Positions 9,320 to 46,360 of a DNA stretch of 64,000 nucleotides are shown here, one piece after another. This DNA comes from a virus. Taxonomy: Duplodnaviria; Heunggongvirae; Uroviricota; Caudoviricetes. The DNA lies in the IMG/VR virus record IMGVR_UViG_3300008262_000052; one strand, 5' to 3'. The translations under genes and the position numbers were made by a program. The notes under the pieces are model-generated. The model ran no database searches. It was not told the origin of the DNA and saw only the letters and a program-made list of their open reading frames with translations. The stretch's first letter is position 1. Each line of letters opens with the position of its first letter.

Positions 9320-9511
9320 GTGACAGCATACGAACACAAAGAAGCCAATAGATATTATTGGATTGTCAAAGGACACCTGATTCCAGATGCATGGAGTGAA
9401 AAAGACATCATGAGTGTGTACAACGGTTACTTTGAACGTATCTGGGGTAATCATGAAAACGTTGTTCACGAAGACGGGTTCGAAGAAGCATGGAGCAAAA
9501 AAACATGGTAA
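9320..9511 (+). CDS. hypothetical protein
   Basis: Last AT-rich ORF before the GC-rich island. Confidence 0.35.
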   Translation: MTAYEHKEANRYYWIVKGHLIPDAWSEKDIMSVYNGYFERIWGNHENVVHEDGFEEAWSKKTW

Positions 9512-9542
9512 GCACTCAAATAGCCCAGATGGACGCCGCCGA

Positions 9543-12422
9543 ATGAAAGACTTCATTATTCCCTCGGACCGCGATTTTGGCACGCCCTATGTGCGTTCGA
9601 CCGCTACGGTGACCCTGAACATCGACGGGTTCGATGTGACCGTGCCCAAAGACACCAGCATAATGCGAGCCGCCGCCGAGATTGGCATCACAGTGCCAAA
9701 GCTGTGCGCGACCGACAACCTTGAGGCCTTTGGCTCCTGCCGCCTGTGCCTTGTGGAAATCGAAGGCCGCAATGGCACGCCCGCCTCTTGCACCACGCCC
9801 GTTGCCCCCGGCATCCGGGTGAAAACCCAAACCGGCAATCTGAAACAACTGCGTCGCGGCGTAATGGAGTTGTATATCTCGGACCACCCGCTGGACTGCC
9901 TGACCTGCTCGGCCAATGGCGATTGCGAGTTGCAGGACATGGCTGGTGCCGTCGGCCTGCGCGATGTGCGCTATGAGGCGATCGACACCCACTTCCGCGC
10001 CAAGAACAACTCTGGCGAGGCCAATCCGCAGTGGAAAGCCAAGGACGAGAGCAACCCCTACTTCACCTATGACCCGGCGAAATGCATCGTCTGCTCGCGC
10101 TGTGTGCGGGCTTGTGAAGAGGTGCAGGGCACCTTTGCGCTGACCATCGAAGGTCGAGGCTTTGACAGCCGTGTGTCGTTCGGTGCAAAAACCGATGATG
10201 CGCTGGCCTCGGATTGCGTGTCCTGCGGTGCCTGCGTACAAGCCTGCCCGACAGCGACCTTGCAGGAAAAGTCGATCATCGAAATCGGCACACCGGAACG
10301 CTCTGTCATCACCACCTGCGCCTATTGCGGTGTGGGTTGCCAGTTTAAAGCTGAACTGCGCGGCGACGAGCTGGTGCGGATGGTCCCTTACAAGCACGGC
10401 AAGGCCAACCGTGGCCATTCCTGCGTCAAGGGCCGCTTTGCCTATGGCTATGCCTCCCACCAAGACCGCATCCTGTCGCCGATGATCCGCGACAGCATCA
10501 ACGACCCGTGGAAAGAAGTCTCGTGGGCCGAGGCGATGGAATTCGCCGCGAACCGCATGAAGGGCATAATTTCCAAATACGGGCAAAAGTCCGTGGGTGT
10601 GATCACCTCGTCGCGCTGCACCAATGAAGAAACCTATCTGGTGCAGAAACTGACTCGAGCAGTGTTCCTGAACAACAACACTGACACCTGCGCCCGCGTC
10701 TGCCATTCGCCCACCGGTTATGGCTTGGGTCAGACTCTTGGTACCAGTGCTGGAACGCAAGACTTTGATTCGGTAGAATATACAGATGTGGCCATTGTGA
10801 TTGGAGCCAATCCTGCTGTAGGTCACCCGGTCTTTGCAAGCCGTCTAAAAAAACGCCTGCGTAAAGGAGCGAAACTGATAGTCATTGACCCTCGCCGCAC
10901 TGAAATTGTAGTAAGCCCGCATATCAAAGCAGTACATCACCTTGCACTTACACCAGGCACCAACGTGGCCATGGTCACCGCACTGGCGCATGTGATCGTG
11001 ACCGAAAAGCTCTACAACGAAGAGTTCATCCGCACCCGCTGCGACTGGGATGAATTCCAAGACTATGCCGAGTTTGTCAGCCGCCCGAACCATTCGCCCG
11101 AAGCGGTGGAAATCCTAACCGGCGTCAAGGCCGAGGATGTCCGCGCCGCGGCCCGCACCTATGCCACCGGCGGCAACGGCTCGATCTACTACGGTCTGGG
11201 CGTGACGGAACATTCGCAAGGCTCGACCACCGTGATCGGCATTGCAAACTTGGCGATGATGACCGGCAACATTGGCCGTCCGGGCGTGGGTGTGAACCCG
11301 CTGCGTGGCCAAAACAACGTGCAAGGCTCGTGCGACATGGGATCCTTCCCGCACGAACTGCCGGGTTACCGCCATGTGAAGAACGACGATGTACGGGCAA
11401 TCTATGAAAACCTCTGGGGCGTGAAGATCGATAATGAGCCGGGCCTGCGTATCCCCAACATGCTGGATGCCGCCGTGGAGGGCACCTTCAAGGGGTTGTA
11501 CTGCCAAGGCGAAGACATCCTGCAATCTGACCCGGACACCAAGCACGTTGCGGCAGGTCTGGCAGCGATGGAATGCGTGATCGTGCATGACCTGTTCCTG
11601 AACGAGACCGCAAACTACGCCCATGTGTTCTTCCCTGGATCGAGTTTCTTGGAAAAGGACGGCACCTTTACCAACACTGAGCGCCGCATCAACATGGTAC
11701 GCAAGGTAATGGCTCCGAAGCCGGGTTATGCCGATTGGGAAGTCACCCAGTTGTTCGCTAACGCAATGGGTGCCAACTGGAACTACACCCACCCGGTGCA
11801 GATCATGGAAGAGATTGCCATGACCACGCCGTCCTTCGCCGGTGTCAGCTATGACAAGATCGAAGAGATGGGCTCGGTCCAGTGGCCCTGCAACGAAAAA
11901 GCGCCTGAAGGCACGCCTTTGATGCACGTCGATGCCTTCGTGCGTGGCAAAGGTCGGTTCATCAACACCGAATATATTGCCACTGATGAACGCACTGGCC
12001 CGCGTTTCCCGCTGCTACTCACCACGGGCCGTATCCTGTCGCAGTACAACGTGGGCGCCCAAACACGCCGCACAGCGAACAGTATATGGCATACTGAAGA
12101 TTTGTTGGAAATCCATCCCCACGATGCTGAAGTGCGCGGTGTCAAAGAGGGTGATTGGGTGCGTCTGGCCTCACGTGCCGGGGAAACCACCCTGCGAGCA
12201 ACACTGACCGACAAAGTCAATCCGGGCGTGGTCTACACCACCTTCCACCACCCCGACACCCAAGCCAATGTTATCACCACCGATTTCAGCGATTGGGCTA
12301 CCAACTGTCCAGAATACAAGGTTACGGCAGTTCAGGTGTCGCCCTCCAACGGCCCGTCGAAATGGCAAGAGGAATACAACGCTCAAGCCACTCTCTCACG
12401 TCGTATTGCAGCAGCGAAATGA
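9543..12422 (+). CDS. fdsA: formate dehydrogenase alpha subunit (FdsA/FdhF-type with N-terminal 2Fe-2S, 4Fe-4S and molybdopterin domains)
   Basis: N-terminus TVTLNIDGFDVTVPKDTSIMRAAAEIGITVPKLCATDNLEAFGSCRLCLVEIEGR (2Fe-2S NuoG-like). CxxCxxC ferredoxin motifs (CIVCSRCVRACEE, CVSCGACVQACP). Molybdopterin oxidoreductase body about 960 aa. About 60% GC against about 37% for the flanks. The true start is the ATG at 9543, because the upstream part of ORF 9414 is AT-rich phage DNA in frame by chance. Confidence 0.9.
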   Translation: MKDFIIPSDRDFGTPYVRSTATVTLNIDGFDVTVPKDTSIMRAAAEIGITVPKLCATDNLEAFGSCRLCLVEIEGRNGTPASCTTPVAPGIRVKTQTGNLKQLRRGVMELYISDHPLDCLTCSANGDCELQDMAGAVGLRDVRYEAIDTHFRAKNNSGEANPQWKAKDESNPYFTYDPAKCIVCSRCVRACEEVQGTFALTIEGRGFDSRVSFGAKTDDALASDCVSCGACVQACPTATLQEKSIIEIGTPERSVITTCAYCGVGCQFKAELRGDELVRMVPYKHGKANRGHSCVKGRFAYGYASHQDRILSPMIRDSINDPWKEVSWAEAMEFAANRMKGIISKYGQKSVGVITSSRCTNEETYLVQKLTRAVFLNNNTDTCARVCHSPTGYGLGQTLGTSAGTQDFDSVEYTDVAIVIGANPAVGHPVFASRLKKRLRKGAKLIVIDPRRTEIVVSPHIKAVHHLALTPGTNVAMVTALAHVIVTEKLYNEEFIRTRCDWDEFQDYAEFVSRPNHSPEAVEILTGVKAEDVRAAARTYATGGNGSIYYGLGVTEHSQGSTTVIGIANLAMMTGNIGRPGVGVNPLRGQNNVQGSCDMGSFPHELPGYRHVKNDDVRAIYENLWGVKIDNEPGLRIPNMLDAAVEGTFKGLYCQGEDILQSDPDTKHVAAGLAAMECVIVHDLFLNETANYAHVFFPGSSFLEKDGTFTNTERRINMVRKVMAPKPGYADWEVTQLFANAMGANWNYTHPVQIMEEIAMTTPSFAGVSYDKIEEMGSVQWPCNEKAPEGTPLMHVDAFVRGKGRFINTEYIATDERTGPRFPLLLTTGRILSQYNVGAQTRRTANSIWHTEDLLEIHPHDAEVRGVKEGDWVRLASRAGETTLRATLTDKVNPGVVYTTFHHPDTQANVITTDFSDWATNCPEYKVTAVQVSPSNGPSKWQEEYNAQATLSRRIAAAK

Positions 12423-12554
12423 CGAACAAGCATACACAAAAAAGTTCTTGACTGGTTGACTGTTTTAGCATATAAATAACTTGTGATGTTGAAGTTCACT
12501 GAACACGGATGAGACCCGGGGGCGGCACCCGGCAGGTCCACCATAAGAAGACTG

Positions 12555-12716
12555 ATGATGTATGTATATTACGATGAGAGTAAAGACAGAAGCGAAGATC
12601 TTGATTGGAAAAAGTACTGTGATGAACAGGTACCGACTGAGCAAGAACAGATCTTTTGGGGTAATGTAAGTATTATATTTGTTTTAGTATTAGGATTAAT
12701 CGCAGTATTTTTATGA
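12555..12716 (+). CDS. small single-TM protein (53 aa)
   Basis: ATGATG start downstream of a TATAAATA box at 12469. Hydrophobic C-terminus IIFVLVLGLIAVFL. Confidence 0.3.
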   Translation: MMYVYYDESKDRSEDLDWKKYCDEQVPTEQEQIFWGNVSIIFVLVLGLIAVFL

Positions 12717-12900
12717 TGGGCCTGACATAGGATCGATCAACGAACTAGGCAGGATGGAGTCACCGGGATCTAAGCGCCGTTACCGCGAAGAAAATGACAA
12801 CTGCAAATGAAAATTTTGCACCTTCTGAGTTTGCTCTAGCAGCATAACTACAGGGCGCCCGGGGAGAGCGTAGCAACAGAATCTCCTCATAAATACTATT

Positions 12901-13056
12901 ATGCACACAGATTACTATGTTTACGAATACCTGCGAGAAGATGGCACTCCCTACTATGTAGGCAAAGGTCGTTGTGGAAGATATAAAGAACGTCACGTCA
13001 CTCTAAAGCCAACAGTGGAACAGCCAAAGAAAAACACTCGTCGTAAAACTAAATAG
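12901..13056 (+). pseudogene. GIY-YIG homing-endonuclease N-terminal fragment (51 aa)
   Basis: YYVYEYLREDGTPYYVGKG...R..Y matches the GIY-(10)-YIG plus conserved Arg half-motif. The ORF stops before the catalytic Glu/Asn region. Confidence 0.4.
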
Positions 13057-13060
13057 TTGT

Positions 13061-13264
13061 ATGGACGACAACGATAACCCAGCACCAGAAGAAAAATTTG
13101 AAATCAGCCTAAGACTGTTGGGCAATGAAATCATTGCTATGGCACTGCTGAGTCAAAGCAAAAAGAAAAATTGGGTTTTATTTGGTTTACTTGCATTCAT
13201 ACTGATTACTGTCATACTTGAAAGACTGGTACCAGTAATTGAAAAAATGCAAGGTGTTATGTAA
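13061..13264 (+). CDS. small membrane protein
   Basis: Hydrophobic helix WVLFGLLAFILITVIL. Confidence 0.35.
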   Translation: MDDNDNPAPEEKFEISLRLLGNEIIAMALLSQSKKKNWVLFGLLAFILITVILERLVPVIEKMQGVM

Positions 13265-13413
13265 CTGTTGCACATTGAACACACATTTAAAAAGCATTTT
13301 CAAAAAACCCTAGATATCTGTTCAAACTAGTTGTATTTTACAGAATATCTGTTATAACTAATATTACGAATGAGCAAGAAATTTGCCATTATAATAACAA
13401 AGGGAAAAACTTT

Positions 13414-14205
13414 ATGAAACTATTACTTACTACTGTTGCAGCCATTGCATTTGCTGGTGCTGCATTTGCTGCTGATTTTGGCGGCACTGTTGGCGCTGAA
13501 TTCACCAAAAACGTTGCTGGCAATTTTGTTGCAACTCCAACTGTTGAATTGTCATTTGGTCACAAAGCCGAAGGCGCAACTGCATTTGGCGCTGTTGGCG
13601 TAGAAGCAGACGGCAGCGATCTTGTTGTTGACTCGTGGCATGTTGGTGTAGCATTTGGCGGCACTAGTGTTAGTTTTGGCGATCAAGGCGACTTGTTTGG
13701 CTTTGGCGGCTTAGAAGTTGTTGGCGGCGATACTCTTGCTGATCCAGCAGACGATCACGAGAGTGTGATTGTTAGCCACGGTGCAGTTGAAGTTCTTGTT
13801 GGTTTAACTGACATCAGCACCAATGTAGGCGACATTGAAAACGTTCAGATTGCTTATAGCAACGACTACGGTAAGATTGATGTAGCCGGAGCACTTGACT
13901 ACAATCTTGACACCGAGGACACTACTGTTGCAGTAGCAACTGGTGTTGATGTTAGCGAAGCACTTTATGCTAACGTAACTGTTACTTATGCTGATGAATT
14001 TGCTTATGAAGCAATGGGTACTTACGGTGCAATGGACGCACTAGACGTTTCTGCTTTCATCAACGGTGACGAAACCGACATGGCACAGAACATCGGTGCT
14101 GGCGTTGTCTACACCAAGGATAGCCTAAGTGCATTTGCTGAAGTTGGTTACAATCTAGACACTGAAGAAACTACTCCTGCAATTGGCGTATCATTTAACT
14201 TCTAA
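13414..14205 (+). CDS. secreted beta-barrel / porin-like protein
   Basis: Signal peptide MKLLLTTVAAIAFAGAAFA|ADFGG. Gly/Ala/Val-rich alternating pattern. C-terminal ...GVSFNF with terminal Phe as in OM beta-barrels. Strong RBS AAAGGG. Followed by a strong terminator. Confidence 0.5.
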   Translation: MKLLLTTVAAIAFAGAAFAADFGGTVGAEFTKNVAGNFVATPTVELSFGHKAEGATAFGAVGVEADGSDLVVDSWHVGVAFGGTSVSFGDQGDLFGFGGLEVVGGDTLADPADDHESVIVSHGAVEVLVGLTDISTNVGDIENVQIAYSNDYGKIDVAGALDYNLDTEDTTVAVATGVDVSEALYANVTVTYADEFAYEAMGTYGAMDALDVSAFINGDETDMAQNIGAGVVYTKDSLSAFAEVGYNLDTEETTPAIGVSFNF

Positions 14206-14225
14206 TCTACGCTAAAATACAAAGT

Positions 14226-14262
14226 CAAAAAGGGTCCTATAAAATAGAACCCTTTTTTTTTT
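14226..14262 (+). terminator. rho-independent terminator
   Basis: AAAGGGTC-loop-GAACCCTTTTTTTTTT hairpin with a T10 run. Confidence 0.8.
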
Positions 14263-14298
14263 GTATTCAATAAATACCTACATAATGGAGGATCGGCA

Positions 14299-14556
14299 AT
14301 GGCCAAAAAAGGCGGAAAGAGTTCGGGTTTTACATCTCAAGGACTTCACAGCAATGTTTCAGCAAGAATTACAAATCAGTTAAGAAGCGAGTATCTTGCA
14401 TCTAGCGAGCGTGTAATAAATCAATTACAGGCCTGGAAAAAGAACAAGAATGTAGTTCTTACTATCGAAAATCCAAACAAGAACGAAACTAACAAGCGAT
14501 TTATCAAAGTCAAAGCATTTGACTATTGGGGTTCTCCAAAGAAGTTTCAATCTTAA
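14299..14556 (+). CDS. hypothetical protein
   Basis: RBS GGAGGA, basic 85 aa. Confidence 0.45.
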   Translation: MAKKGGKSSGFTSQGLHSNVSARITNQLRSEYLASSERVINQLQAWKKNKNVVLTIENPNKNETNKRFIKVKAFDYWGSPKKFQS

Positions 14557-19920: not shown

Positions 19921-21085
19921 ACTTTTTGTTCATGTTAGATTACCGTACTTTAGTGATGTAATGGATGATGCACCACAATATGAAGAATGCTTTTCTGACA
20001 TGCAAATATTTTTAAAAAACATAAAGTCTCGTGGAATAAATGAACAAATTGTATTTGTTTTAAATCATATGTGGGAAATAACATTTGTTAAAGATTTAAA
20101 CTTTTTACACAACTTTTTTAAAAACAAACTCAAAAATTACAATGTAGATTTTTTTATTTTATATAGTGTATGTGCAGATGATCAAGATGATCTTCCAAAA
20201 AATATTATAAAATACAATTTTTTCCAAAGCAAGACAGTACATGCAACAACCATCAACAATCAACAAACAGCAAAAAAATGGGATAAATCCAAGTTTAGAG
20301 GATTGTTACTTACAGGAAAAGCGCATAAGCCTCAAAGACTAATACCATTAAAATTTTTATTAGATAATAACTTGTTAAATGAAATTGACATGGAATGGAG
20401 TTTCTTTTATTATAAAGAATATGCAGTAGATATTAAGAGATTTTTAAATATCAACAATGGCGAATTGCAACACTTTGTTTCTTCTGCTTCAAGAAATCCA
20501 GACAACATCAAAGTTTCACAGTACGGAAATCTTTTTAGTTATGATGGATTTCCCTACAGTCAGAATCTATATTCGGATACTTCATGGTCACTAATTTCCG
20601 AAACAGGAGCAAACAGATCTGTCTTATGGATTACTGAAAAAACATATAGAGCCATAATAAATAGACATCCGTTTATATTGTTTGGTCAACCCGGATCAGA
20701 AGAACACTTAAGATCTCAAGGATTTAAAACATTTGAATATTGTTTTCCAATAAATTATGACAACATAACTTCCAACGAACATCGATTCGAAGCAGCATTT
20801 AAAAACATTTGTCATATAAGAGAAAACTGGAAAAATTTAGATTTTGAGAGAATAAACGACGATGTAAATCACAATTACAATGTTTTATTTAATAGTGTTG
20901 TAAATGAGCAAAAACAACTAATTAAAAAATTAAAATTCAATGACGGGGATAAAATTTGTGACATTCTACTTTATGATCTTTTTCACTTCGGCCATGTCTT
21001 CGGGGCCGATGCTGAGGTATCTACTGTAGAAGACGTTGTAAACGGAAAAAAAAGTATAATTTATTATTATTGGGATATCAGATGA
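19913..21085 (+). CDS. hypothetical protein (very AT-rich, Asn/Phe/Lys-rich)
   Basis: 390 aa ORF overlapping the hemO stop. No recognisable motif. Confidence 0.5.
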   Translation: MSKLFVHVRLPYFSDVMDDAPQYEECFSDMQIFLKNIKSRGINEQIVFVLNHMWEITFVKDLNFLHNFFKNKLKNYNVDFFILYSVCADDQDDLPKNIIKYNFFQSKTVHATTINNQQTAKKWDKSKFRGLLLTGKAHKPQRLIPLKFLLDNNLLNEIDMEWSFFYYKEYAVDIKRFLNINNGELQHFVSSASRNPDNIKVSQYGNLFSYDGFPYSQNLYSDTSWSLISETGANRSVLWITEKTYRAIINRHPFILFGQPGSEEHLRSQGFKTFEYCFPINYDNITSNEHRFEAAFKNICHIRENWKNLDFERINDDVNHNYNVLFNSVVNEQKQLIKKLKFNDGDKICDILLYDLFHFGHVFGADAEVSTVEDVVNGKKSIIYYYWDIR

Positions 21086-21765
21086 CAGTATGGAATTACT
21101 TAATTGACTGGCAAGAAGAAGTTGTTGATAACTTAGACTCAGTCGCAGAACGTGTTAATGAACCTGGGATGGACAGATTCAATCAACCCGGCTGGATCAA
21201 TCTTGTTTGGGAAAGTGGCTGGGCAAGACGCATACATCTAGATGTAGTCGATGCCAGAGAAACAAAAGGTCTCTGGATGATGCACTTTTGTATTTTTCCA
21301 CACCTGGACAATTCTGGACCAATCTACGGGCTTGATGTAATTGCAGGCAAAAACAAAGTCACTGGATTCTTTCACGATCTATCTCCTACTGTCGACAACA
21401 ACCATGCTATGATTGAACAGTTTGGTGATGTTCTAAAAGATCACTCTTGGAAGAAAGAACGCGAGTTACCTGAATGGGCGCAGGCAATTTTTAGCAAACA
21501 CATGTTGGCAGTGGGCAATGTTAACACCGAAGAAGAACTGCTTAAACTTCTACAATTGTCGTGGGCTAATCTAGAAGATTACGGTACTGAAATACAAAAG
21601 TATGCAGGCACTTGCACAGCAGAATTGGGTAAGACTGCACAAAATCGCTATGCATATTATCAAAAACAAAATCCACATACACCACGTACTATGACAGCAT
21701 TAGGGCTCAACGAAGAAGATGTAAGAGCATTCGTACAAGAATGTTTGTTTCCAGACATTGAATAA
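21070..21765 (+). CDS. pcyX: ferredoxin-dependent bilin reductase, PcyA family (phage PcyX-like)
   Basis: [37 protein letters not shown] aligns with PcyA [63 protein letters not shown] aligns with [26 protein letters not shown]. Sits directly after the heme oxygenase. Confidence 0.85.
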   Translation: [231 protein letters not shown]

Positions 21766-23480: not shown

Positions 23481-23945
23481 ATGAAAAAAATCTCGATAGT
23501 CATGTTGATGCTATTACCGACATTTGCAAATGCAGAATTAGTTCATACATTTAAAAATCCAAGTTTTAGCGGTGAAGGGTATAGTAATCATGTGTTGGGT
23601 ATTGAACAACTAGGGTTCAATAGACAAAAAGATATTGACGATGCTATTGCTGCTGAACAAGAACGCATAGAGCGAGAATTAGAAAACTCAACACTCAACA
23701 AATTTTTACGCAACATAGAAAGTAGAATATATGCTACACTATCCAAGCAGATGGTGGATGCTATGTTCGAGTCTTGTGCTGATGAAACAGGAGCAACTTG
23801 TCCGACCAGTGGTACAACTGAAATAGAAGGCAGTACTATTAGTTGGAGCAAAGACACTGTTACCGGTAGTATTACTTTGGAGGTTGTAAGCGATGAAGGA
23901 ACAACCACTATTACTATACCTGGCGCAGGGGAGTTTAACTTTTGA
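23481..23945 (+). CDS. csgF: curli assembly protein CsgF homologue
   Basis: Signal peptide. Mature N-terminus HTFKNPSFSGEGYSNHVLGIEQLGFN matches CsgF [26 protein letters not shown]. Confidence 0.7.
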   Translation: MKKISIVMLMLLPTFANAELVHTFKNPSFSGEGYSNHVLGIEQLGFNRQKDIDDAIAAEQERIERELENSTLNKFLRNIESRIYATLSKQMVDAMFESCADETGATCPTSGTTEIEGSTISWSKDTVTGSITLEVVSDEGTTTITIPGAGEFNF

Positions 23946-24721
23946 TTAAAGCAGCATTAGTAGGATTGTTATTTCTAACTGGATGTGTGTCGATAGAAGA
24001 ACAAGCCAGTGAAATCATAGAAGAACCGAGAATTCAAGATAATCCCTTGCGTGTAGAACTTGCAAATGTTCCTGCACTAAATGGACCTAAGATGACTATC
24101 GGTGTTTACAGTTTCACAGACAAAACCGGGCAACGAGAGCCAGCAGATAACTTTAGCAGTTTGAGTAGTGCAGTAACACAAGGTGCAGAAGTTTGGGTAA
24201 TAGATGCACTGATGCAGGTAGGCAACGGCAGTTGGTTTGAAGTTGTAGAACGTGTAGGCATGGACAATGTAATTGCAGAACGTCAACTTATACGTCAAAC
24301 AAGAGAAAATTATTTAGACAATCCTGATCCATTGAATCCTATGCAATTTGCAGGGTTGATACTAGAAGGCGGAATAGTGGGATATGACAGTAACGTAGCA
24401 ACAGGAGGAACCGGAGCACGTTACTTTGGAATAGGCGCAGGATCGGAGTACAGAGTAGATACTGTAACAGTTGCAATGCGTTTAGTAAGTGTTAGCACAG
24501 GAAGAGTGCTAATAAGTGTGGCTACTGAGAAAACTATAGCTAGTCACAAAACTGGTGCAGATGTATTTAAGTTCTTAGACATGAGCACCAAGGCACTGGA
24601 AATCGAGAGTGGATTTAGTGTCAACGAACCTACCAACTATGCTGTGAGGGCAGCAATAGAGGCAGGAATAATAGAACTAATATACGAAGGAGCTCGTAGA
24701 GAGCTGTGGAGTTTTAAATGA
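23942..24721 (+). CDS. csgG: curli secretion channel lipoprotein CsgG homologue
   Basis: Lipobox LTGC. IGVYSFTDKTGQ. GYDSNVATGGTGARYFGIGAGSEYRVDTVTVAMRLVSVSTGRVLISVATEKTI is near-identical in pattern to E. coli CsgG GYESNVKSGGVGARYFGIGADTQYQLDQIAVNLRVVNVSTGEILSSVNTSKTI. Confidence 0.9.
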   Translation: MIKAALVGLLFLTGCVSIEEQASEIIEEPRIQDNPLRVELANVPALNGPKMTIGVYSFTDKTGQREPADNFSSLSSAVTQGAEVWVIDALMQVGNGSWFEVVERVGMDNVIAERQLIRQTRENYLDNPDPLNPMQFAGLILEGGIVGYDSNVATGGTGARYFGIGAGSEYRVDTVTVAMRLVSVSTGRVLISVATEKTIASHKTGADVFKFLDMSTKALEIESGFSVNEPTNYAVRAAIEAGIIELIYEGARRELWSFK

Positions 24722-24733
24722 GGGCAATAAAAA

Positions 24734-25426
24734 ATGAAAAAAATAATAATAGGGGCCTTGTTTGTACTAGTTAGTTCTGCGGCCTTGGCTAACGAAATCT
24801 ACATACAACAAATAGGGGACAACCTTGCATTGACTGTTAGTCAAACCGGTTCTGGCAACAAGATCGGCGACCTGTCAACAACTGCACCTGCCTTGCTTTC
24901 AGGTGATGATATGACATTTGATATTACACAAAACGGCGATTATAACGTTATAGCAGCAACTATTAAGGGCAATACATATACAGGTGACTGGATATTCAAC
25001 GGGGACAGCAACACAGTTGATTTAACCTGCGATATAACAAACGGCGCAAACTGCGAAATTGTAACAGTTGACATTACAGTTAATGGAAACAGCAACGACT
25101 TTAGCGTATATATTGGTGAAAATAAAGTTACAGATAACCTTGTAGCAGAATTTACCATCGACGGCGACGGCAACGTTATTTTAGCCAACTTGGATGCAAC
25201 CAATGCTGATGTTACATTTACCATTGACAATAGTTTAGCAGCCAGCGGCAACACTGTTACCATAGATCAAGATGATGCAGGCGGTGTAAACGGACACAGT
25301 ATTACCTATGATTTAACAGGTGGCGGAAATAATATCAACATAACACAAAGCGGATTAACGGACAAGACCGTTAATGTAACATCAACGGCCAACGACGGGA
25401 CTGTAACAATTACACAGACTGATTAA
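24734..25426 (+). CDS. secreted curlin-repeat-like protein (candidate amyloid subunit)
   Basis: Signal peptide. First repeat IYIQQIGDNLALTVSQTGSGN fits the curlin repeat S-x5-Q-x-G-x2-N-x-A-x3-Q. Further degenerate Q/N/G repeats (DITQNGDYNVIAATIKGN). Confidence 0.55.
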   Translation: MKKIIIGALFVLVSSAALANEIYIQQIGDNLALTVSQTGSGNKIGDLSTTAPALLSGDDMTFDITQNGDYNVIAATIKGNTYTGDWIFNGDSNTVDLTCDITNGANCEIVTVDITVNGNSNDFSVYIGENKVTDNLVAEFTIDGDGNVILANLDATNADVTFTIDNSLAASGNTVTIDQDDAGGVNGHSITYDLTGGGNNINITQSGLTDKTVNVTSTANDGTVTITQTD

Positions 25427-26520
25427 TGCTGAAATATATTATACCATTGCTGTTGATAGCTAATACCGCATATGCCAATGTAGGCGAAATAGCAACCATC
25501 GATGGCAGTGGTATTGTTAAGCGTGAGTCCACAGAGATACTCGGAGAACAAGGTGTAGGACTCGAAATGCAAGATACAATTGCTACTGCCAACGGTCGTA
25601 TGCAATTACAGTTTGCGGACGATACTCGTGTTGATGTTACTGAACACAGCCGCATGGTCATTGATGAGTTTGTGTATGATCCTAACAGTGGTACTGGTGA
25701 ATTGAGTATGCGAGCAACGCTAGGTGCTGTTCGTTATGCCAGTGGCGCTATTGCTAAGAACAGCAGACAAAATGTTAATATCGAAACACCAAGTGCAACT
25801 ATCGGTGTACGTGGAACAGACTTTATGATGATTGTAGACGAAATCGGCGGCAGTATGGTTACACTGTTGCCAAGTTGCAACACTGCTGGCATGTGCGTGG
25901 TTGGCGAAATAACTGTTGAAACAGACGAAGGTATAGTTATAATGAATCAAGCCTTTCAGACCACAGTGGTTGCTCATAACGGTATGGTACCTAAACCACC
26001 TGTAATATTAGAACTGCCCGAAGACATGCTTCGTAGTATGCTGATTGTTAGACGAGTTGATCCTTATGACGAAGCAGCAGAAGATGCACAGCCAGCAGTT
26101 GATTTACTAGACATAGACTTTTTGGCTTTTGATGAATTAGACAAGGATCCGCTTGTGGAGGGTATTAAAAATATATGGGTAACAGACTTGGATACAAACA
26201 CATATCTCAACGAAGTGTTTGTAGATCAACTGACAGCAGTGATGAAAGAAGTGATGCAAAAGTTATTAAGCGAACTAGACACACAAAATACTGCGTTTTT
26301 TGAAGAAAAGTTTTTAGGATTGGATCCTGAAACAGGAATATTTTATGACGAGGTTCCGCCTAATAATATTTTTAGAAGAAGCGAAAATTCTCATATGATT
26401 GATTTAATGTTAAGTCAAGGATATGGGTATACACTGGGTGTGGTTCAAAATGGATTTAGTATATACGGATATAGGATAGGTGTAGGAAATAATACAATTA
26501 ATATCAATCAACAGGAGTAA
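25426..26520 (+). CDS. secreted FecR-domain protein
   Basis: Signal peptide. GEIATIDGSGIVKRE...TIATANGRMQLQFADDTRVDVTEHSRMVIDEF...ETPSATIGVRGTDFMM matches the FecR domain pattern (...GT.F). Confidence 0.5.
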   Translation: MLKYIIPLLLIANTAYANVGEIATIDGSGIVKRESTEILGEQGVGLEMQDTIATANGRMQLQFADDTRVDVTEHSRMVIDEFVYDPNSGTGELSMRATLGAVRYASGAIAKNSRQNVNIETPSATIGVRGTDFMMIVDEIGGSMVTLLPSCNTAGMCVVGEITVETDEGIVIMNQAFQTTVVAHNGMVPKPPVILELPEDMLRSMLIVRRVDPYDEAAEDAQPAVDLLDIDFLAFDELDKDPLVEGIKNIWVTDLDTNTYLNEVFVDQLTAVMKEVMQKLLSELDTQNTAFFEEKFLGLDPETGIFYDEVPPNNIFRRSENSHMIDLMLSQGYGYTLGVVQNGFSIYGYRIGVGNNTININQQE

Positions 26521-26523
26521 CAA

Positions 26524-26874
26524 ATGGATTTAATATGGGCAATGGCATTAAGCAGTCATTTAGGAATGGAGGGAGATTACAATAGTCTACATCCGCATTT
26601 AAGATTACAAGAAAATAATTTTATCGCAGGCGCATACTACAACAGCGAAGAAAGGATTAGTCTTTACGGAGGTTATAGACTAGAACCAACTGAAAAAACA
26701 GGTATCGAGTTTACTATAGCAACAGGCTATGAAGAACTTGGTGCAATTACTCCGTATGCTAGAGGCACTTACGATATGGGAAAGGCAAGATTTTTTGTTG
26801 CGCCAGGTTTTGAAAAAAACAACGACGAAACTAATATAGGCGTGGTTTTAGGAATAGAACTACAACTTAAATAA
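26524..26874 (+). CDS. hypothetical protein
   Basis: 116 aa, beta-rich, ending ...GIELQLK. Confidence 0.4.
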   Translation: MDLIWAMALSSHLGMEGDYNSLHPHLRLQENNFIAGAYYNSEERISLYGGYRLEPTEKTGIEFTIATGYEELGAITPYARGTYDMGKARFFVAPGFEKNNDETNIGVVLGIELQLK

Positions 26875-26902
26875 CATAACAAGATCTCATGGAGGGCAAA
26901 AA

Positions 26903-28912
26903 ATGAGACGAATAATAGGGGGCACTGTGCTGGCTCTTTTACTAAGCACAACAGCATTTGCTGATACCAGTAGCATTAATGGCACATCCAGCATGGGTGT
27001 ACTTGAAAATAATTGGGTTAAGGCTGGTGTAAACAAAAACTCCGGTACATTTGGAAGCGGTGGCGGAACCAGTCCTGGCCTACTATTCGATCCAACTGGA
27101 ACAGGAACATTCAACGCTGGCTTTGATTATCTAACACCAGGAGCACCGTTTGACGGATTCTCTCTTAAGGTTGACGGCGTCAATGCTGCAAACAACAATA
27201 CCGGTTCTACATCATTTGTTGATGCAGACGGATTAACTGACGGTACTAACACGTTAACATGGAGCGGCGATAGAGCATTTGGCAGTTCAACATGGAATGT
27301 TACAAATACATTTACATTGGGTACAACTGCATCATTTGTTGATGTGACAACAACAATTGTTGCTGGTAGTGCAGCATCAAGTGTTTGGTTTGGTAAATTT
27401 ATCGATCCGGATAGCCAAGGTATGGCCGGCGATAGCTCAAGCACAGACAACGTATTAGGTTACTCAGGTATCCCATCAACTAACGTTGCATTCAGCGAAG
27501 CAACTGTTTCACGTTATGCACTAGGTTTATATTCAACAGATACAAACGTAGCAGCAGGCATCAACAGTTGGAGCTCAGAAGCAGATTCATACATAAATGC
27601 AGATGCATCTTGCGGCGCAGGCGTACTATATTGTAATGCAGATGATACAATTGGTCTTTCGTGGAATTGGTTAAGTGTTAGCGCAGGCGATATTCTCACA
27701 GCAAGTTATGCTTATATATTTGGACCAAGTGCGTTTGATGCAGCAGATTCTGCAATTGACGGTGGTGCTGGCGGCGGAACACCCGGCGTGTTACCAACTG
27801 GATGGACACTAACCGACGTGGGAAGTGCAACTGATGCAGCAAGCGGTGGCGGCACACCTACTATTACTTCTACTACAACTGCTACAATAACTTCAACAAC
27901 CGAAGCACCGAGTACAACACTTCCTGTGCTAACAGCAAGTATTACAACACACGACAGCAGTGTAGCAGATGGCGTGCAAACAATTGCTCGTGAAACCACA
28001 ACAACTACAACAACACCAGTTGATGTAACTACCACATCATTTGTGCGTACTACAGATACTTACAGTGACAGCAGTGTTGTTGTAACAGATGGAACACCAA
28101 CAGTCACAACAGTATTACGCAATGACATCACTACAGCAATTACTTTCCCTCTACCATTTATAGGACGTATGGACCAAATAAATGCAATGTTAGACCTAAA
28201 TCTAGCACATAACATTGGATTCGGTTCTGGTGTTAACGCCGGACGCATCAGCAGTGAAACAGACACCGGATACACTGCTGATACACAGTACTTCTCACTA
28301 GGTGTAAATACCACAACTGACAGTGGTTTAATAATAGGCGGCGGCCTTGTTAGCATGTCATCGGAGTTGTCAGGTAACAATTCAACTGGTGCGTCAAGAA
28401 CAACTAAAATTGGTATAACAGTTGGCAAAGAAATGGAAAAATTTACAATCACCGGTACTGCTAACACTGCGTCAACTGATCTAGCGTACAGTAGAACTAT
28501 TGGTCCTTGCTGTGTACTTTTTAGTCCATACTTTTCTGCACACGGATTAACATCGGCAACTGATAATTGGGCAAGCATTGAACTACGTCCAAATACAAAT
28601 GTTGTACATCCAATATTAGGGTATACTGTTGGCAAAAAATCAACTGATGGGTATGGCGAAATAGGAAGCATACAAGCCAAACTGGTCAACACCGGTTCTG
28701 AAGAAACCTACGGCTATGCAACTATTGGTGCTGACGTAGATGTAGGATTGGTAAATTTGAGTGCAATTTATAACACTGATGGTAGCACAAAGCTAGGGAT
28801 TGGCGTTAACAAAGACATAGGAAAAGCAAATGTAAATGTTTCAGCAACACAGTTTGGAACAGAAACATCAAGCAGCACATCAATCAGTGCTGGTCTTTCA
28901 CTAAAGTTCTAA
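26903..28912 (+). CDS. large secreted Thr-rich protein with C-terminal beta-barrel-like domain (autotransporter/adhesin-like)
   Basis: Signal peptide MRRIIGGTVLALLLSTTAFA. Poly-Thr linker (TTTTTTTPVDVTTTS...). C-terminus ...SAGLSLKF with terminal Phe. RBS GGAGGG. Confidence 0.5.
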   Translation: MRRIIGGTVLALLLSTTAFADTSSINGTSSMGVLENNWVKAGVNKNSGTFGSGGGTSPGLLFDPTGTGTFNAGFDYLTPGAPFDGFSLKVDGVNAANNNTGSTSFVDADGLTDGTNTLTWSGDRAFGSSTWNVTNTFTLGTTASFVDVTTTIVAGSAASSVWFGKFIDPDSQGMAGDSSSTDNVLGYSGIPSTNVAFSEATVSRYALGLYSTDTNVAAGINSWSSEADSYINADASCGAGVLYCNADDTIGLSWNWLSVSAGDILTASYAYIFGPSAFDAADSAIDGGAGGGTPGVLPTGWTLTDVGSATDAASGGGTPTITSTTTATITSTTEAPSTTLPVLTASITTHDSSVADGVQTIARETTTTTTTPVDVTTTSFVRTTDTYSDSSVVVTDGTPTVTTVLRNDITTAITFPLPFIGRMDQINAMLDLNLAHNIGFGSGVNAGRISSETDTGYTADTQYFSLGVNTTTDSGLIIGGGLVSMSSELSGNNSTGASRTTKIGITVGKEMEKFTITGTANTASTDLAYSRTIGPCCVLFSPYFSAHGLTSATDNWASIELRPNTNVVHPILGYTVGKKSTDGYGEIGSIQAKLVNTGSEETYGYATIGADVDVGLVNLSAIYNTDGSTKLGIGVNKDIGKANVNVSATQFGTETSSSTSISAGLSLKF

Positions 28913-28914
28913 TG

Positions 28915-28941
28915 TAAAAACAAGATAGGCTCTTCGGAGCC
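28915..28941 (+). terminator. rho-independent terminator with UUCG tetraloop
   Basis: GATAGGCTC-TTCG-GAGCCTATC followed by TTTCT. Confidence 0.75.
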
Positions 28942-28998
28942 TATCTTTCTAACTAACTATAATTTAAAATTATAGAGTTTATAAAATAAATATACTAA

Positions 28999-29250
28999 AT
29001 GAACTGGTTTAGAAATCTATTCTTGAAAGAAGCAAATGAAAACCCCGGAGCATCAGAAATCTCTGTTAGAGTTGCTGAAATTCAGGCCCGCATCGCCGCT
29101 ATTAGAAGCCGCAATGGATGGGACCAAGAACCCTATAAAAATTCTAAAGCACAATCCCAGTATGTGGTGGCGGAAGAAAAACACCCGGTAAAAAATAAAT
29201 CTCAAGAAATGGATGCACTAAAAGCAAAACTGTTAGGAAAAAAATTGTGA
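28999..29250 (+). CDS. hypothetical protein
   Basis: 83 aa ORF coupled to the cyclase gene. Confidence 0.4.
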   Translation: MNWFRNLFLKEANENPGASEISVRVAEIQARIAAIRSRNGWDQEPYKNSKAQSQYVVAEEKHPVKNKSQEMDALKAKLLGKKL

Positions 29251-31289
29251 AAAAACTGTTATTATCACCTGTTTGGAGCATTGTAATTTTAGGGTTGTTG
29301 GGCTGGTTACAGTTCAGTAACCCTGATTTTTTGGAAAGTCTACGTTTACGATATTTTGATCAGTTGATAGTAAATCAAGCACCTGTAGAAAATAACATTT
29401 ATACAGTTAATATAGATGAAGCAAGTATTACTGCTCGCGGTCAGTGGCCTTGGCCAAGAGGCGATTATGCTAAACTAATAGAGGATCTATATGCACGTGG
29501 CGCAGGACTAGTTGTGTTTAACGTGTTGATGAGCGAAACAGACAGAGCAGGACAAGACAGGATACTATCAACTACTATGGGTAATTATCCTGTTGTAGTT
29601 ACAATGTTAGGAACTGAGGAAAATAAAAATGAACCAATCAACCCTGGTGCTAGTATCATTAATAGTGACTTTATTGATCTTATCCCTGCCGTGCCTGGCA
29701 TCACAGCAAACGTGCCTGCCATTGAAAATGCAGCAGTTGGGTCAGGAATTATCAATACCTTTCCAGAAATTGATGGAGTTGTCAGACGTGCTCCGCTAGT
29801 ACTAGAAAGTGGAGGAATACTATACCCTAACGTTACTATGGAAGTGCTTAGAGTTCTAGCAGGGGATCCTAGTTTCCAAATCAAATTATCACCGTTGGGA
29901 GTTGACAAATTACGAATTCCGCAATACGGTGTACTACAAACTGATGGACTTGGTAGAGTATGGTTAGACTGGAGTCAAGGCTTTAGCAGTCACAGTGCAG
30001 CAGAACTACCTGCAGACTTTGCCGGAGGTATAGTATTTGTAGGTCCTACTGCGGCTGGCATTACACAACCAATTGCAACAGCCAAAGGCGGCGTGTGGCC
30101 ACATGAACTACAGGCTATGATGTTAGGCACAGTGTTTAATGCAAGTAACATAGAACGCCCTGCATGGTCACCAGGTGCCGAATTATTAGCATTTGTACTT
30201 GCCGGATTAGCACTAATAGTTGCTGCACGTTGGACTTATGCGGGCATTGGCATTTTTGTAATACTTGTAGGTGGGTCAATCGGTGGTAGCATCTATGCCT
30301 TTGCTACCTACAACTTCTTGATTGATGGATTTTTACCTGCGGCGTTTCTATTGCTTGTAGGTATTATACGTTATGTAATCAAATTTGTAAGTGAGTTCTT
30401 ACAAAAGCAAGCAATCAAGAAACAGTTCGAAGGATATGCATCACCTGCCGTAGTTAAGTTATTGCAAACAAACCCAGATCTTGTCAAGAAAGGCATGAAG
30501 AAAGAAGTAAGCATACTGTTTAGCGATTTACGTGGCTTTACACCATTAGGTGAAAGTTTCGGCGACGATGTTGCAGGACTTACTAAAATAATGAATGGAT
30601 ACATGGATGCTATCACACAGCCTGTGCTAGATGCAAACGGTATGATTATTAAATATATCGGTGATGCAAGTATGCATATACACAATGCACCAGTAGACGA
30701 TCCTGAACATGCAAAGACAGCAGTTGCTACTGGTTTAAAAATGTTACGAGCAGTAGAGAATTTTAATGAAACAGTCATCATACCCCAAGGAAGACCACCA
30801 GTTGGCATGGGCGCCGGAATCAACACAGGTCTCGGATACATCGGAGAAATGGGGTCAACCAAACGTCACAGTTACGACGTACTTGGAGACGCAGTCAGCA
30901 CCGCCGCAAGAATCGAATCAAAATGTAAAGAATACGGCTGCTTATTACTCGTGGGTGGCGCTACAGTAGAACAGTGCAAAGACGAATTCTTCTTCCTCAA
31001 AGTAGATGACTTAGCAGTTAAAGGTAAAACTGTAGGTGTTGCTATCTATACTGTATTAGACGATGTTAAACCAACATGGAAAACCAGTAAAAAACATCAT
31101 GATCAAATGCACAAACTATATCGTATGAAACAGTTTGATGAAGCAATAGAACAGTGTAATTTAATTCGCAGAGCATTTGACGGCAAAATGGAAAAATACT
31201 ACGATATGTGGATTGAACGTTGTGAATACATGAAAACGCAAACATTGCCAGCAGATTGGAATGGCGTGTTTATTGCCCTGACAAAGTAG
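29247..31289 (+). CDS. membrane CHASE2-sensor class III adenylate/guanylate cyclase
   Basis: N-terminal TM, periplasmic CHASE2-like region, three TM helices. Catalytic domain VSILFSDLRGFTPLGESFGDD...IKYIGDASMH...GAGINTGLGYIGEMGSTKRHSYDVLGDAVSTAARIES matches the CYCc pattern (F.D..GFT, GD, RI.S). GTG start. Confidence 0.8.
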   Translation: MKKLLLSPVWSIVILGLLGWLQFSNPDFLESLRLRYFDQLIVNQAPVENNIYTVNIDEASITARGQWPWPRGDYAKLIEDLYARGAGLVVFNVLMSETDRAGQDRILSTTMGNYPVVVTMLGTEENKNEPINPGASIINSDFIDLIPAVPGITANVPAIENAAVGSGIINTFPEIDGVVRRAPLVLESGGILYPNVTMEVLRVLAGDPSFQIKLSPLGVDKLRIPQYGVLQTDGLGRVWLDWSQGFSSHSAAELPADFAGGIVFVGPTAAGITQPIATAKGGVWPHELQAMMLGTVFNASNIERPAWSPGAELLAFVLAGLALIVAARWTYAGIGIFVILVGGSIGGSIYAFATYNFLIDGFLPAAFLLLVGIIRYVIKFVSEFLQKQAIKKQFEGYASPAVVKLLQTNPDLVKKGMKKEVSILFSDLRGFTPLGESFGDDVAGLTKIMNGYMDAITQPVLDANGMIIKYIGDASMHIHNAPVDDPEHAKTAVATGLKMLRAVENFNETVIIPQGRPPVGMGAGINTGLGYIGEMGSTKRHSYDVLGDAVSTAARIESKCKEYGCLLLVGGATVEQCKDEFFFLKVDDLAVKGKTVGVAIYTVLDDVKPTWKTSKKHHDQMHKLYRMKQFDEAIEQCNLIRRAFDGKMEKYYDMWIERCEYMKTQTLPADWNGVFIALTK

Positions 31290-45067: not shown

Positions 45068-45151
45068 GGTCGGTGGCCCGGATGGTAAGGGGATGGACTG
45101 CAACTCCATAGCACTGCAAAGTAATGTGTTCGATTCACATACCGACCTCCA
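45068..45151 (+). tRNA. tRNA-Cys(GCA)-like, atypical
   Basis: Acceptor GGTCGGT/ACCGACC. Anticodon arm ATGGA-CTGCAAC-TCCAT. T-arm ATGTG-TTCGATT-CACAT. Encoded CCA. The 14-nt variable region is unusual for Cys. Confidence 0.35.
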
Positions 45152-45206
45152 AACAATGATGTGGTAGCACAACGGTATTCGAATCCAGCCTACATCACCA
45201 AACTAT

Positions 45207-45283
45207 GGGACATTGGACTTCTTGGCGAAGGTCGCCGCCCTTTCAAGGCGGAGAAACGGGTTCGAAACCCGTATGTCCTACCA
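45207..45283 (+). tRNA. tRNA-Glu(TTC)
   Basis: Anticodon arm CCGCC-CTTTCAA-GGCGG as in alphaproteobacterial tRNA-Glu. T-arm ACGGG-TTCGAAA-CCCGT. Encoded CCA. Confidence 0.7.
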
Positions 45284-45289
45284 AAATAA

Positions 45290-45374
45290 GGGAGAGACGC
45301 CTCAAGGTGAGGCAGTGGACTGTAACTCCATCGCGGCAACGCACGGACGGGTTCGATTCCCTCCTCTCCCACCA
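45290..45374 (+). tRNA. tRNA-Tyr(GTA)
   Basis: Anticodon loop CTGTAAC. Long variable arm (GCG-GCAA-CGC). Acceptor GGGAGAG/CTCTCCC. T-stem with 2 mismatches. CCA encoded. Confidence 0.65.
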
Positions 45375-45380
45375 AAATAT

Positions 45381-45456
<76 letters not shown>

Positions 45457-45501
45457 TAATTGTTTTTTTGTTATAAATATTCTAGTATTTAGGAGAACAT
45501 A

Positions 45502-45945: not shown

Positions 45946-45964
45946 CAAACATACAACTATTAAT

Positions 45965-46042
45965 GCACCGGTAGCTCAGCCAGGTTAGAGCCGCGGACTC
46001 TTAATCCGAAGGTCGTGGGTTCAACTCCCACCCGGTACACCA
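45965..46042 (+). tRNA. tRNA-Lys(CTT)
   Basis: Anticodon loop CTCTTAA. T-arm GTGGG-TTCAACT-CCCAC. One acceptor mismatch and a 27:43 mismatch. CCA encoded. Confidence 0.7.
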
Positions 46043-46101
46043 ATTCAAGGAACAAAAATGAAACGAAAACGTAACAAAGAAGAAAGCGACAAACGAAACG
46101 T

Positions 46102-46177
46102 GGACCGGTAGCTGAGGTGGTTTTAGCACCCGACTTTTAATCGGAGTACGTGGGTTCGAATCCCACCCGGTTCACCA
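46102..46177 (+). tRNA. tRNA-Lys(TTT)
   Basis: Anticodon loop CTTTTAA. T-arm GTGGG-TTCGAAT-CCCAC. 27:43 C:A mismatch. CCA encoded. Confidence 0.75.
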
Positions 46178-46353: not shown

Positions 46354-46360
46354 GAATAAT

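Follow-up and report, generated by a model that had tools for sequence, protein, structure and literature searches.

What is a bacteriophage doing with the genes of a curli secretion system, and where does the gene set end? The question is raised by IMG/VR virus record IMGVR_UViG_3300008262_000052, a member of the Caudoviricetes, of which we analysed a stretch of 64,000 nucleotides (the window). A preliminary description, made from the sequence alone, recognised a curli-type secretion module at 23481-28941, and its six open reading frames (ORFs) do lie on the + strand between 23481 and 28912 at the positions given, with all of the quoted peptides in place. The conserved unit is longer than this. 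It is made up of csgF, csgG, a curlin-repeat gene, a gene for a secreted FecR-domain protein, a variable slot and a gene for a CHASE2 adenylate cyclase (window 23481-31289). We consider it probable that in this block a T4-like marine myophage, a relative of HTVC008M and Melnitz, has a copy of the pelagiphage cluster for type VIII (curli) secretion, which acts by the mechanism proposed below. As a gene set, the cluster is of an already published kind with a lineage-specific insert, and it is the function that we infer.

Curli genes in marine phages have been described before. CsgF and CsgG were reported in pelagimyophages in 2020, with 'sibling capture' as the proposed purpose (PMC7029224), and this report bears out the mention of such genes in metagenomic pelagimyophages in the preliminary description. 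For the phage Melnitz, Buchholz et al. proposed a secretin- or pinholin-like pore that times lysis (PMC9004378, 2022). The full cluster was then described in podo- and myo-pelagiphages as CsgF, CsgG, CsgA/B, FecR, often a second CsgA/B, and an adenylate cyclase; it was traced to an alphaproteobacterial origin with transfer from myo- to podophages, found at all 65 GOV2.0 stations at approximately 0.1% of assembled viral proteins, and seen to be expressed in metatranscriptomes (PMC9599517, 2022). FecR was taken there as an iron regulator, and Pelagibacter was said to encode no components of the cluster. The curlin-like and FecR-like genes, which had been put forward as an undescribed extension of the module, are thus core parts of the cluster in that study and, because they are already described there, our synteny and curlin results are confirmation and not discovery.

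Gene order was compared by tblastn of each window protein against 81 viral loci (80 from IMG/VR, together with HTVC008M), all of which share the module order of the window. An IMG/VR scan found 96 stretches that encode a relative of the window CsgG. The order in the viral loci is CsgF, CsgG, curlin-like protein, FecR, a gap of 0-4 kb and CHASE2 cyclase. Wherever the FecR gene is complete and more than ~2.2 kb of sequence lies downstream of it, the cyclase comes after FecR, with the exception of one locus (L022) in which it lies upstream on the opposite strand. Because the cyclase is conserved downstream across related loci, the block does not stop at the hairpin with which it had been thought to end. 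In compact loci the FecR stop and the cyclase start overlap by 4 nt (for example in L074, FecR 11366-12397 and cyclase 12394-14445); the distance from FecR to cyclase in the window is 2.7 kb. A blastn search led to the cultured Pelagibacter myophage HTVC008M, whose proteins AGE60348-AGE60353 follow the same order and are annotated as CsgF, CsgG, curlin-associated protein, two hypothetical proteins and adenylate/guanylyl cyclase. Identity between the window and HTVC008M is 52% for CsgF, 52% for CsgG, 34% for the curlin protein, 45% for FecR and 35% for the cyclase. The phage setting assumed at the outset is borne out by the surroundings as well: all large ORFs of the window lie on one strand, the GC content of the block (0.40-0.42) is like that of its flanks, and the neighbouring genes encode an exonuclease, ribonucleotide reductase (RNR) subunits, a gp63-like RNA ligase and a DNA methyltransferase.

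Features of the curli cluster in the window, with the basis of each assignment
Feature	Position	Strand	Size and basis
CsgF, secreted	23481-23945	+	154 aa; PF10614
CsgG, outer-membrane lipoprotein channel	23942-24721	+	259 aa; PF03783
Curlin-repeat protein, CsgA/B-like, probable secreted fibre subunit	24734-25426	+	230 aa; PF07012 at family level
Secreted FecR-domain protein	25426-26520	+	364 aa; PF04773
Small beta-rich accessory protein	26524-26874	+	116 aa; weak OMP_b-brl match only
Type Va (classical) autotransporter, accessory insert	26903-28912	+	669 aa, ending ...LSLKF; AlphaFold and Foldseek
Hairpin, 11 bp, UUCG loop	28922-28947	+	folding energy compared with shuffles
Small accessory protein	28999-29250	+	83 aa; ORF
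CHASE2 adenylate cyclase, beyond the end of the block as preliminarily described	29247-31289	+	680 aa; Pfam CHASE2 and Guanylate_cyc

The first two genes are what they were proposed to be. CsgF matches its profile at 44.2 bits against a cutoff of 25.8, and carries the N-terminal motif F-K-N-P-x-F-x-G-x-G-Y-S-x-H-V-L, the segment that, by its sequence, should insert into the CsgG barrel. Across 57 phage sequences (that of the window and 56 homologues), F24, P27, F29, G31, G33, H37 and L39 are invariant, and 56 of the 57 end in a C-terminal Phe. The E. coli CsgF chains in the PDB gave no phmmer match to the window CsgF; the motif resembles the E. coli sequence F-R-N-P-N-F-G-G. The mature N-terminus needs a small correction: the signal peptide, read by eye, ends in ...FANA and is followed by ELVH, so that the mature protein likely opens with ELVHTFKNP and not with HTFKNP. 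The csgG start overlaps the csgF stop by 4 nt. CsgG scores 172 bits on its Pfam profile against a cutoff of 20.8, and its residues 6-258 align to the E. coli CsgG structures 3x2r and 4uv3 (E=1.4e-50), in keeping with the collinearity claimed for it. The lipobox Cys is kept in all 59 sequences aligned, and a D-K-T-G-Q-R-K-P loop is near invariant in the same alignment. We also considered the Caulobacter holdfast anchor as an identity for this protein and rejected it: among NCBIfam models CsgG scores 180 bits and HfaB only 44, CsgF is present, and no HfaA or HfaD match was found for the locus. There is no match to a CsgE, CsgC or CsgD profile among the module's proteins, which agrees with the earlier statement on CsgE and CsgD, and the locus is for that reason not a curli operon of the E. 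coli (gammaproteobacterial) type.

The third gene encodes a protein which, from the signal peptide on, reads by eye as approximately 17 strand units of 11-12 residues with the pattern x-I-x-Q-x-G-x-x-N. Its mature form opens with NEIYIQQIGDN, and the family of second curlins found in other loci opens likewise. The claim that these are curlin-type repeats holds at the level of the family: Curlin_rpt (PF07012) matches 9 of 15 orthologues, with a best E-value of 7.9e-7, and many database homologues have precomputed matches to it. The window copy itself stays under the cutoff, as weighed below. In a profile search of the PDB the top match was a curlin structure (8c50), at a weak E=0.05. An AlphaFold model, computed with an alignment of database homologues as input, is all-beta, with a predicted local distance difference test score (pLDDT) of 83.9 and a predicted template modelling score (pTM) of 0.81. 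Curlin repeats are thus supported by the sequence of this protein, and a CsgA-like two-sheet beta-solenoid is a candidate for its fold.

The wider family is consistent in its placement. A curlin-repeat gene is found in every related locus that reaches past csgG, except L089, and in 26 loci a second such gene comes directly after FecR. These second curlins score up to 80.6 bits on Curlin_rpt in three repeat stretches, and some are joined to PA14 sugar-binding domains, as would suit an adhesive fibre outside the cell. For example, the 441-aa 'hypothetical protein' AGE60352 of HTVC008M (L001, KC465899, 8857-10182) combines a PA14 domain (27.7 bits) with curlin repeats (33.1 bits). In other phages the N-terminal domains differ, and the C-terminus is made of the same curlin repeats, with C-x-N-x-N-G-C-x-V-T-V-T-Q-N as its ending in every case. 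A second curlin gene occupies the slot that follows FecR in most relatives, and the window has none; where HTVC008M has its PA14-curlin gene, the window has the genes for the 116-aa protein and the autotransporter, the hairpin and the gene for the 83-aa protein.

The fourth protein does contain the FecR domain ascribed to it (41.4 bits against a cutoff of 24, the Pfam stretch covering residues 50-143). A signal peptide is followed by a highly conserved FecR domain at ~20-200 and a variable C-terminal half, and the 47 invariant columns of the family alignment lie mainly in the N-terminal half. NCBIfam gave weak matches to the Leptospira FecR-domain lipoproteins LipL45 and Lsa33, and a sequence search of the PDB gave no meaningful match. 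We rejected a FecIRA-type iron regulator for this gene. Read by eye, the signal peptide leads straight into the FecR domain, and the protein lacks an anti-sigma or membrane segment; a scan of neighbouring genes turned up neither a sigma factor nor a TonB receptor domain. The name 'iron regulator' is for these reasons unsupported, and only the FecR domain is shared. We also dropped the idea that the C-terminus, ending N-x-I-x-I-x-Q, is a curlin-like strand pair that docks on fibres, to which hhalign against the curlin alignment gave a probability of 2.9%.

The cyclase at the end of the unit scores 129.9 bits for CHASE2 and 64.6 bits for Guanylate_cyc. Its topology, read by eye, is an N-terminal membrane helix, a periplasmic CHASE2 domain at residues ~24-315, three membrane helices and a cytoplasmic class III cyclase domain, and its PDB matches are adenylate cyclases, including P. 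aeruginosa CyaB (3r5g). All 37 homologues have D427, K469, D473 and R555; at position 544 they carry D, S or T, and position 551 is S in 24 and N in 13, with Ser in the clade of the window. We take the catalytic roles of these positions (metal-binding Asp, specificity Lys with Asp/Thr/Ser, transition-state Asn and Arg) to be those of Rv1625c, CyaC and Cya2. We infer that the phage CHASE2 protein is an active adenylate cyclase with a putative periplasmic two-part sensor. A role as a Pycsar-like defence or counter-defence enzyme was rejected, since PADLOC PycC models reach at most 55.9 bits as against 64.6 for the Pfam cyclase model and the Lys/Asp pair points to ATP; the PycC likeness is treated as shared class III ancestry only.

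The other half of that sensor is suggested by bacterial genomes. Scanned with the FecR alignment, bacterial genomes yielded 72 true relatives of the N-terminal domain; most are from Alphaproteobacteria, and many Pelagibacter genomes are among them. A CHASE2 gene lies within 2.7 kb of FecR in 28 of the 72 loci, with a cyclase output in 11 and another output in 17, of which 16 are Pelagibacter/SAR11. In Pelagibacter ubique HIMB4 (L102, 6013-13277), for example, an IalB-like gene is followed by genes for CHASE2-SpoIIE (a PP2C phosphatase of 666 aa), an unknown protein of 465 aa, a FecR-domain protein of 874 aa and a further unknown of 233 aa, and this CHASE2-FecR arrangement recurs with equal spacing in the other Pelagibacter genomes. 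The SAR11 operon therefore qualifies the published claim that components related to those of the phage cluster are missing from Pelagibacter. In the form with a cyclase, a deltaproteobacterial metagenome-assembled genome (MAG) has TPR, FecR and then CHASE2-cyclase genes, and the order FecR then CHASE2-cyclase is found in the bacterial loci L090, L130 and L144. Operons of LysM-FecR and CHASE2 histidine kinase are known from Burkholderia and P. aeruginosa (PMC5192318). Additionally, the CHASE2 cyclases CyaD1, CyaD2 and CyaK of S. meliloti and the cAMP regulator Clr control a FecR-domain gene, smc02177 (SMc02177), which is a Clr target (PMC5498481).

As in the phages, the bacterial pairs encode a secreted FecR-domain protein beside a membrane protein with a periplasmic CHASE2 domain. 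The phage FecR protein differs in a conserved C-terminal half of its own and the lack of LysM, and inserted genes separate the pair in the window; the pair of the SAR11 host has a PP2C phosphatase output and an 874-aa FecR protein where the phage has a cyclase. The recurrence of the pairing in bacteria, SAR11 hosts included, points to a periplasmic sensor and away from iron regulation, and by sequence the FecR-domain protein is a probable periplasmic partner of the CHASE2 cyclase. Curli genes are absent from these surroundings: tblastn found CsgG, CsgF or curlin near none of the 72 bacterial FecR genes, so that a bacterial ancestor operon holding curli and FecR/CHASE2 genes together was looked for and not found.

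Between FecR and the cyclase lies the variable slot, which in the window holds the 116-aa protein, a type Va autotransporter, the hairpin and the 83-aa protein. The gene for the 116-aa protein starts one codon past the FecR stop in the same frame (window 26518-26526) and is present in approximately 11 related loci, whether or not these have the autotransporter. Its product has a weak match to OMP_b-brl (E=0.038) and no other family match in Pfam, NCBIfam or PADLOC. The N-terminus, M-D/E-x-I-W-A-L-A-L-S-S-H-L-G, is conserved and is not a typical signal peptide, and no signal peptide is detectable in the protein. At the other end of the slot, the stop of the 83-aa gene overlaps the GTG start of the cyclase by 4 nt. 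The 83-aa protein has no family match in Pfam or NCBIfam, and its C-terminal motif EMDALKAKLxGKK is common to the small proteins that precede the cyclase in related loci.

The 669-aa protein had been described as autotransporter-like, and its modelled fold agrees. The AlphaFold model (pLDDT 80.3) has a beta-sandwich passenger at ~23-275, a Thr-rich beta-hairpin stalk at 321-415, a helix at 425-437 and approximately 12 strands at 443-667; the sequence starts with a signal peptide and ends in Phe (...SLKF). In Foldseek the model matches the NalP translocator 1uyo (E=1.8e-7, template modelling score 0.67 on the target), followed by EstA, BrkA, AaaA, Hbp and EspP. PF03797 (autotransporter) matches one of 24 homologues (E=1.5e-7), and the window protein has no Pfam match, PF03797 included. 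On the predicted structure, the protein is a type Va autotransporter that would export its own passenger. It shares with NalP, EstA, BrkA, Hbp and EspP a signal peptide, a passenger, a short helix, a barrel of ~12 strands and a terminal aromatic residue, and differs from the classical members in being phage-encoded and in having a beta-sandwich passenger on a Thr-rich hairpin stalk in place of a long beta-helix or an esterase.

This identity bears on the suggestion that the protein is a cargo of CsgG. Because type Va autotransporters export themselves, it would not be CsgG cargo. The gene is found in only 5 of the 81 viral loci, and the family is abundant in marine metagenomes (1,546 matches). 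A 606-aa homologue of 52% identity (L164, 8001-9821) lies in a T4-like phage region with genes for a spanin, a lipase, UvdE and a PstS-like protein, with no curli genes within 8 kb; such autotransporters therefore circulate among marine phages independently of curli. Since few relatives have the gene and it occurs outside curli clusters, it is an inserted passenger gene of the slot, that is, an independent, mobile surface-protein gene. The candidate explanation that it substitutes for the second curlin was rejected, as both occur together in L163.

The hairpin that follows the autotransporter gene, AAGATAGGCTC-TTCG-GAGCCTATCTT, is stable, with an 11-bp stem, a folding energy of -17.5 kcal/mol and z=-5.7, and none of 200 shuffles was as stable. 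The tail after it on the + strand is UUUCUAAC, and a pattern scan marks the site on the - strand only. Because this tail is a poor U-tract, 'strong terminator', as the element had been called, overstates what it is; judged by its sequence, it is possibly a terminator or an RNA-stabilising element.

The mechanism that we propose has two parts. During infection, host Sec would export the products of the cluster. The CsgG lipoprotein would form a channel in the outer membrane with the N-terminus of CsgF seated in its barrel, and the curlin-repeat protein would be threaded out through it, stacking as beta-solenoid fibres on the infected cell. The autotransporter would insert by its own barrel and show its beta-sandwich domain on the Thr-rich stalk. 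Separately, the periplasmic FecR-domain protein and the CHASE2 domain would form a two-part envelope sensor that drives cyclic AMP (cAMP) synthesis in the cytoplasm. The net effect would be a change of the host surface imposed by the phage and coupled to a second-messenger signal that the phage owns. Surface remodelling, superinfection exclusion and aggregation, which the preliminary description had suggested, are candidate purposes already in print as hypotheses.

Several observations weigh against this mechanism. On the side of the fibre, the fibres are a prediction from the genes, and no clumping of Melnitz-infected cells was observed by Buchholz et al. (PMC9004378). The window curlin copy scores 17.2 bits on PF07012, under the cutoff of 20.7, and a Foldseek search of its model against the PDB gave no match at E<=0.001, the weak ones being generic parallel beta-helices with no curlin among them. 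No Gly-rich targeting segment like N22 of CsgA was seen in the curlin protein, the CsgG constriction residues N70/F71 differ among phages, and a Pfam scan of the module's proteins showed no CsgE-like gate. On the side of the signal, podophage clusters are often without the cyclase (PMC9599517), and the signalling half is therefore not obligatory. The Ser found for the usual Asn at position 551 in 24 of 37 cyclases could lower activity, and with 2.7 kb and a hairpin between them, FecR and cyclase may not be co-transcribed in the window.

Some of these points are shared by a different reading, in which CsgG and CsgF are an open outer-membrane pore that lets macromolecules or cofactors in, or depolarises and permeabilises the envelope to time lysis, with the curlin-like protein as a plug or accessory. 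An ungated channel is what the lack of CsgE in the module would give (also PMC9599517), and the variable constriction suits it too; a secretin- or pinholin-like role was proposed for a phage with which no clumping was seen (PMC9004378), and import of cofactors or siderophores has been proposed as well (PMC9599517). A mere pore is hard to square, however, with a curlin gene that follows csgG wherever the locus reaches far enough, L089 excepted, and with the common occurrence of second curlins that have strong repeat scores and PA14 fusions. Being an outer-membrane protein, CsgG also cannot alone depolarise the inner membrane. CsgF, moreover, is retained with its invariant N-terminal motif although it is dispensable for assembly of the CsgG pore (PMC7029224). 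We regard the open pore as unlikely. There is less to be said for taking the whole cassette as one signalling device, with curlin fibres and the CsgGF channel as antenna or input to the FecR-CHASE2 cyclase and cAMP as the real product. Linkage of the five core genes holds in nearly all myophage loci, where the curlin genes are interleaved with FecR and the cyclase, FecR and cyclase are translationally coupled in compact loci, and the catalytic core of the cyclase is conserved. In S. meliloti, an outer-membrane beta-barrel protein, NsrA, is reportedly required upstream of the CHASE2 cyclases if the signal is to be perceived. Yet none of the 72 bacterial FecR loci, those with a CHASE2 gene included, has curli genes nearby, and the two halves therefore work independently in cells; podophages often dispense with the cyclase (PMC9599517), and a profile comparison found no curlin-like segment in the FecR protein. 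We give this single device a low probability.

That the block is bacterial DNA, through contamination, a chimeric assembly or a host region flanking a prophage, can be regarded as effectively refuted. Like modules do occur on contigs that were binned into MAGs of several phyla (L082-L089, of which L088 is a FecR fragment only), assigned to Polynucleobacter, Rhodobacteraceae, Legionellales, Pirellulales, Flavobacteriaceae and an actinobacterium. However, because L082 and L085 have further phage genes in common with the window, the contigs look like phage DNA that was mis-binned. Contigs of 200-330 kb also carry some of the homologues, and one contig (L162; ENA ERZ4248742 NODE_11, 334,726 bp, ~139x coverage) has the same module and runs into a 1,914-aa protein with a faint match to Peptidase_S74, a phage tail-fibre-type domain. 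This contig is far above the 147 kb of HTVC008M and would therefore be a much larger relative or a concatenated assembly. The window also contains a GC-rich, foreign-looking gene at 9414-12422. Against bacterial DNA stand the uniform composition, single-strand ORFs and phage-gene neighbours of the block, the 96 IMG/VR stretches with the module, the same order in cultured HTVC008M, and the true bacterial FecR relatives, which are without curli genes.

With its phage origin and its content taken together, the cluster can be placed among known systems. It has the gene order of the HTVC008M-type myophages and HTVC023P-type podophages (PMC9599517, PMC7029224, KC465899), likewise without CsgC, CsgD and CsgE and likewise in a variable region of a T4-like marine phage; the podophage version has a histidine kinase upstream, and the window has none. 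The related myophage Melnitz (PMC9004378) has CsgG, CsgF and a transfer-messenger RNA (tmRNA) in two pieces, of the alphaproteobacterial type, all of which are also in the window. No CsgA/B was reported for it, whereas the unit in the window includes a curlin-repeat gene, FecR and cyclase. A further difference is that no glutamine riboswitch was detected in the window at Rfam gathering thresholds. With the curli system of E. coli and Salmonella (csgBAC-csgDEFG) the window has in common a collinear CsgG, a CsgF family member and a secreted curlin-repeat protein, and with the alphaproteobacterial curli type (PMC9599517) the lack of CsgC, CsgD and CsgE. It differs from bacterial curli in being phage-borne, with a host clade that has no curli genes (PMC9599517), in a curlin without a Gly-rich N22-like segment, and in the added FecR-CHASE2 cyclase pair, which is not part of bacterial curli operons.

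Other features of the window were recorded alongside the cluster. Just upstream of it, a gene at 21070-21765 (+) encodes a ferredoxin-dependent bilin reductase (PF05996, 56 bits), which is kept in that place in many related phage loci at 46-65% identity; in L163 (1785-3018) a heme oxygenase gene precedes it. The two-piece (permuted) tmRNA, which resembles the ssrA reported for Melnitz, lies at 12444-12891 (+) and scores 95.6 bits on RF01849 and 89.2 bits on RF04321. The window has 26 tRNA genes in three arrays, all on the + strand (45068-47614, 59680-61011 and 61808-63710). A full-length GOLLD RNA at 62665-63126 (+) covers positions 1-416 of its model (RF02032, 191.7 bits against a gathering threshold of 150), and within the tRNA array a tRNA-Ser(tga) at 62728-62801 is embedded in it. 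The GC-rich gene at 9414-12422 (+) encodes a 1,002-aa molybdopterin oxidoreductase of the formate-dehydrogenase-alpha type, with 2Fe-2S, 4Fe-4S, Molybdopterin (224.5 bits) and Molydop_binding domains. Its GC content is 0.53-0.63 as against ~0.40 around it, the anomaly (~9600-12300) lying almost wholly inside the ORF. No close relative was found in IMG/VR, and in the phage collection it matches gut and Firmicutes records that lack annotation; the gene may have been acquired recently from a foreign source, or it may be the product of a chimeric assembly. Near the start of the window, a 527-aa protein (831-2414, +) has a pectate-lyase-like beta-helix (45.1 bits) and a sub-threshold match to the tropism-determinant N-terminal domain Mtd_N (23.9 against 26.3 bits), and by these matches is probably a tail fibre or spike.

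Phage curli genes are widespread in the ocean (PMC9599517), and the window adds no new principle to what is known of them. It sharpens what is known on three points. At the end of the conserved unit stands a CHASE2 adenylate cyclase with a conserved catalytic core; the 'FecR' gene is better read as coding for a periplasmic partner of the CHASE2 sensor than for an iron regulator; and the slot between FecR and cyclase is a place where genes for other surface proteins land, in this phage that of an autotransporter which exports itself. The published account of the full cluster makes no mention of CHASE, autotransporters, PA14 or signal peptides (PMC9599517), and the searchable literature appears to contain no description of the FecR-CHASE2 pairing, of the host's own version of it or of the autotransporter insert. 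A further step, which we offer as a tentative and rather doubtful one, is that FecR and the CHASE2 cyclase are a periplasmic sensor which the phage took over from a bacterial pathway, one also present in the SAR11 host as FecR with a CHASE2-phosphatase. Such a sensor would read the state of the envelope or surroundings of the infected cell, possibly including the phage's own coat of curli and autotransporter, and turn it into cAMP that steers the infection. If this is true, the cluster would be a device that senses and remodels the host cell, beyond a fibre factory or an iron regulator.

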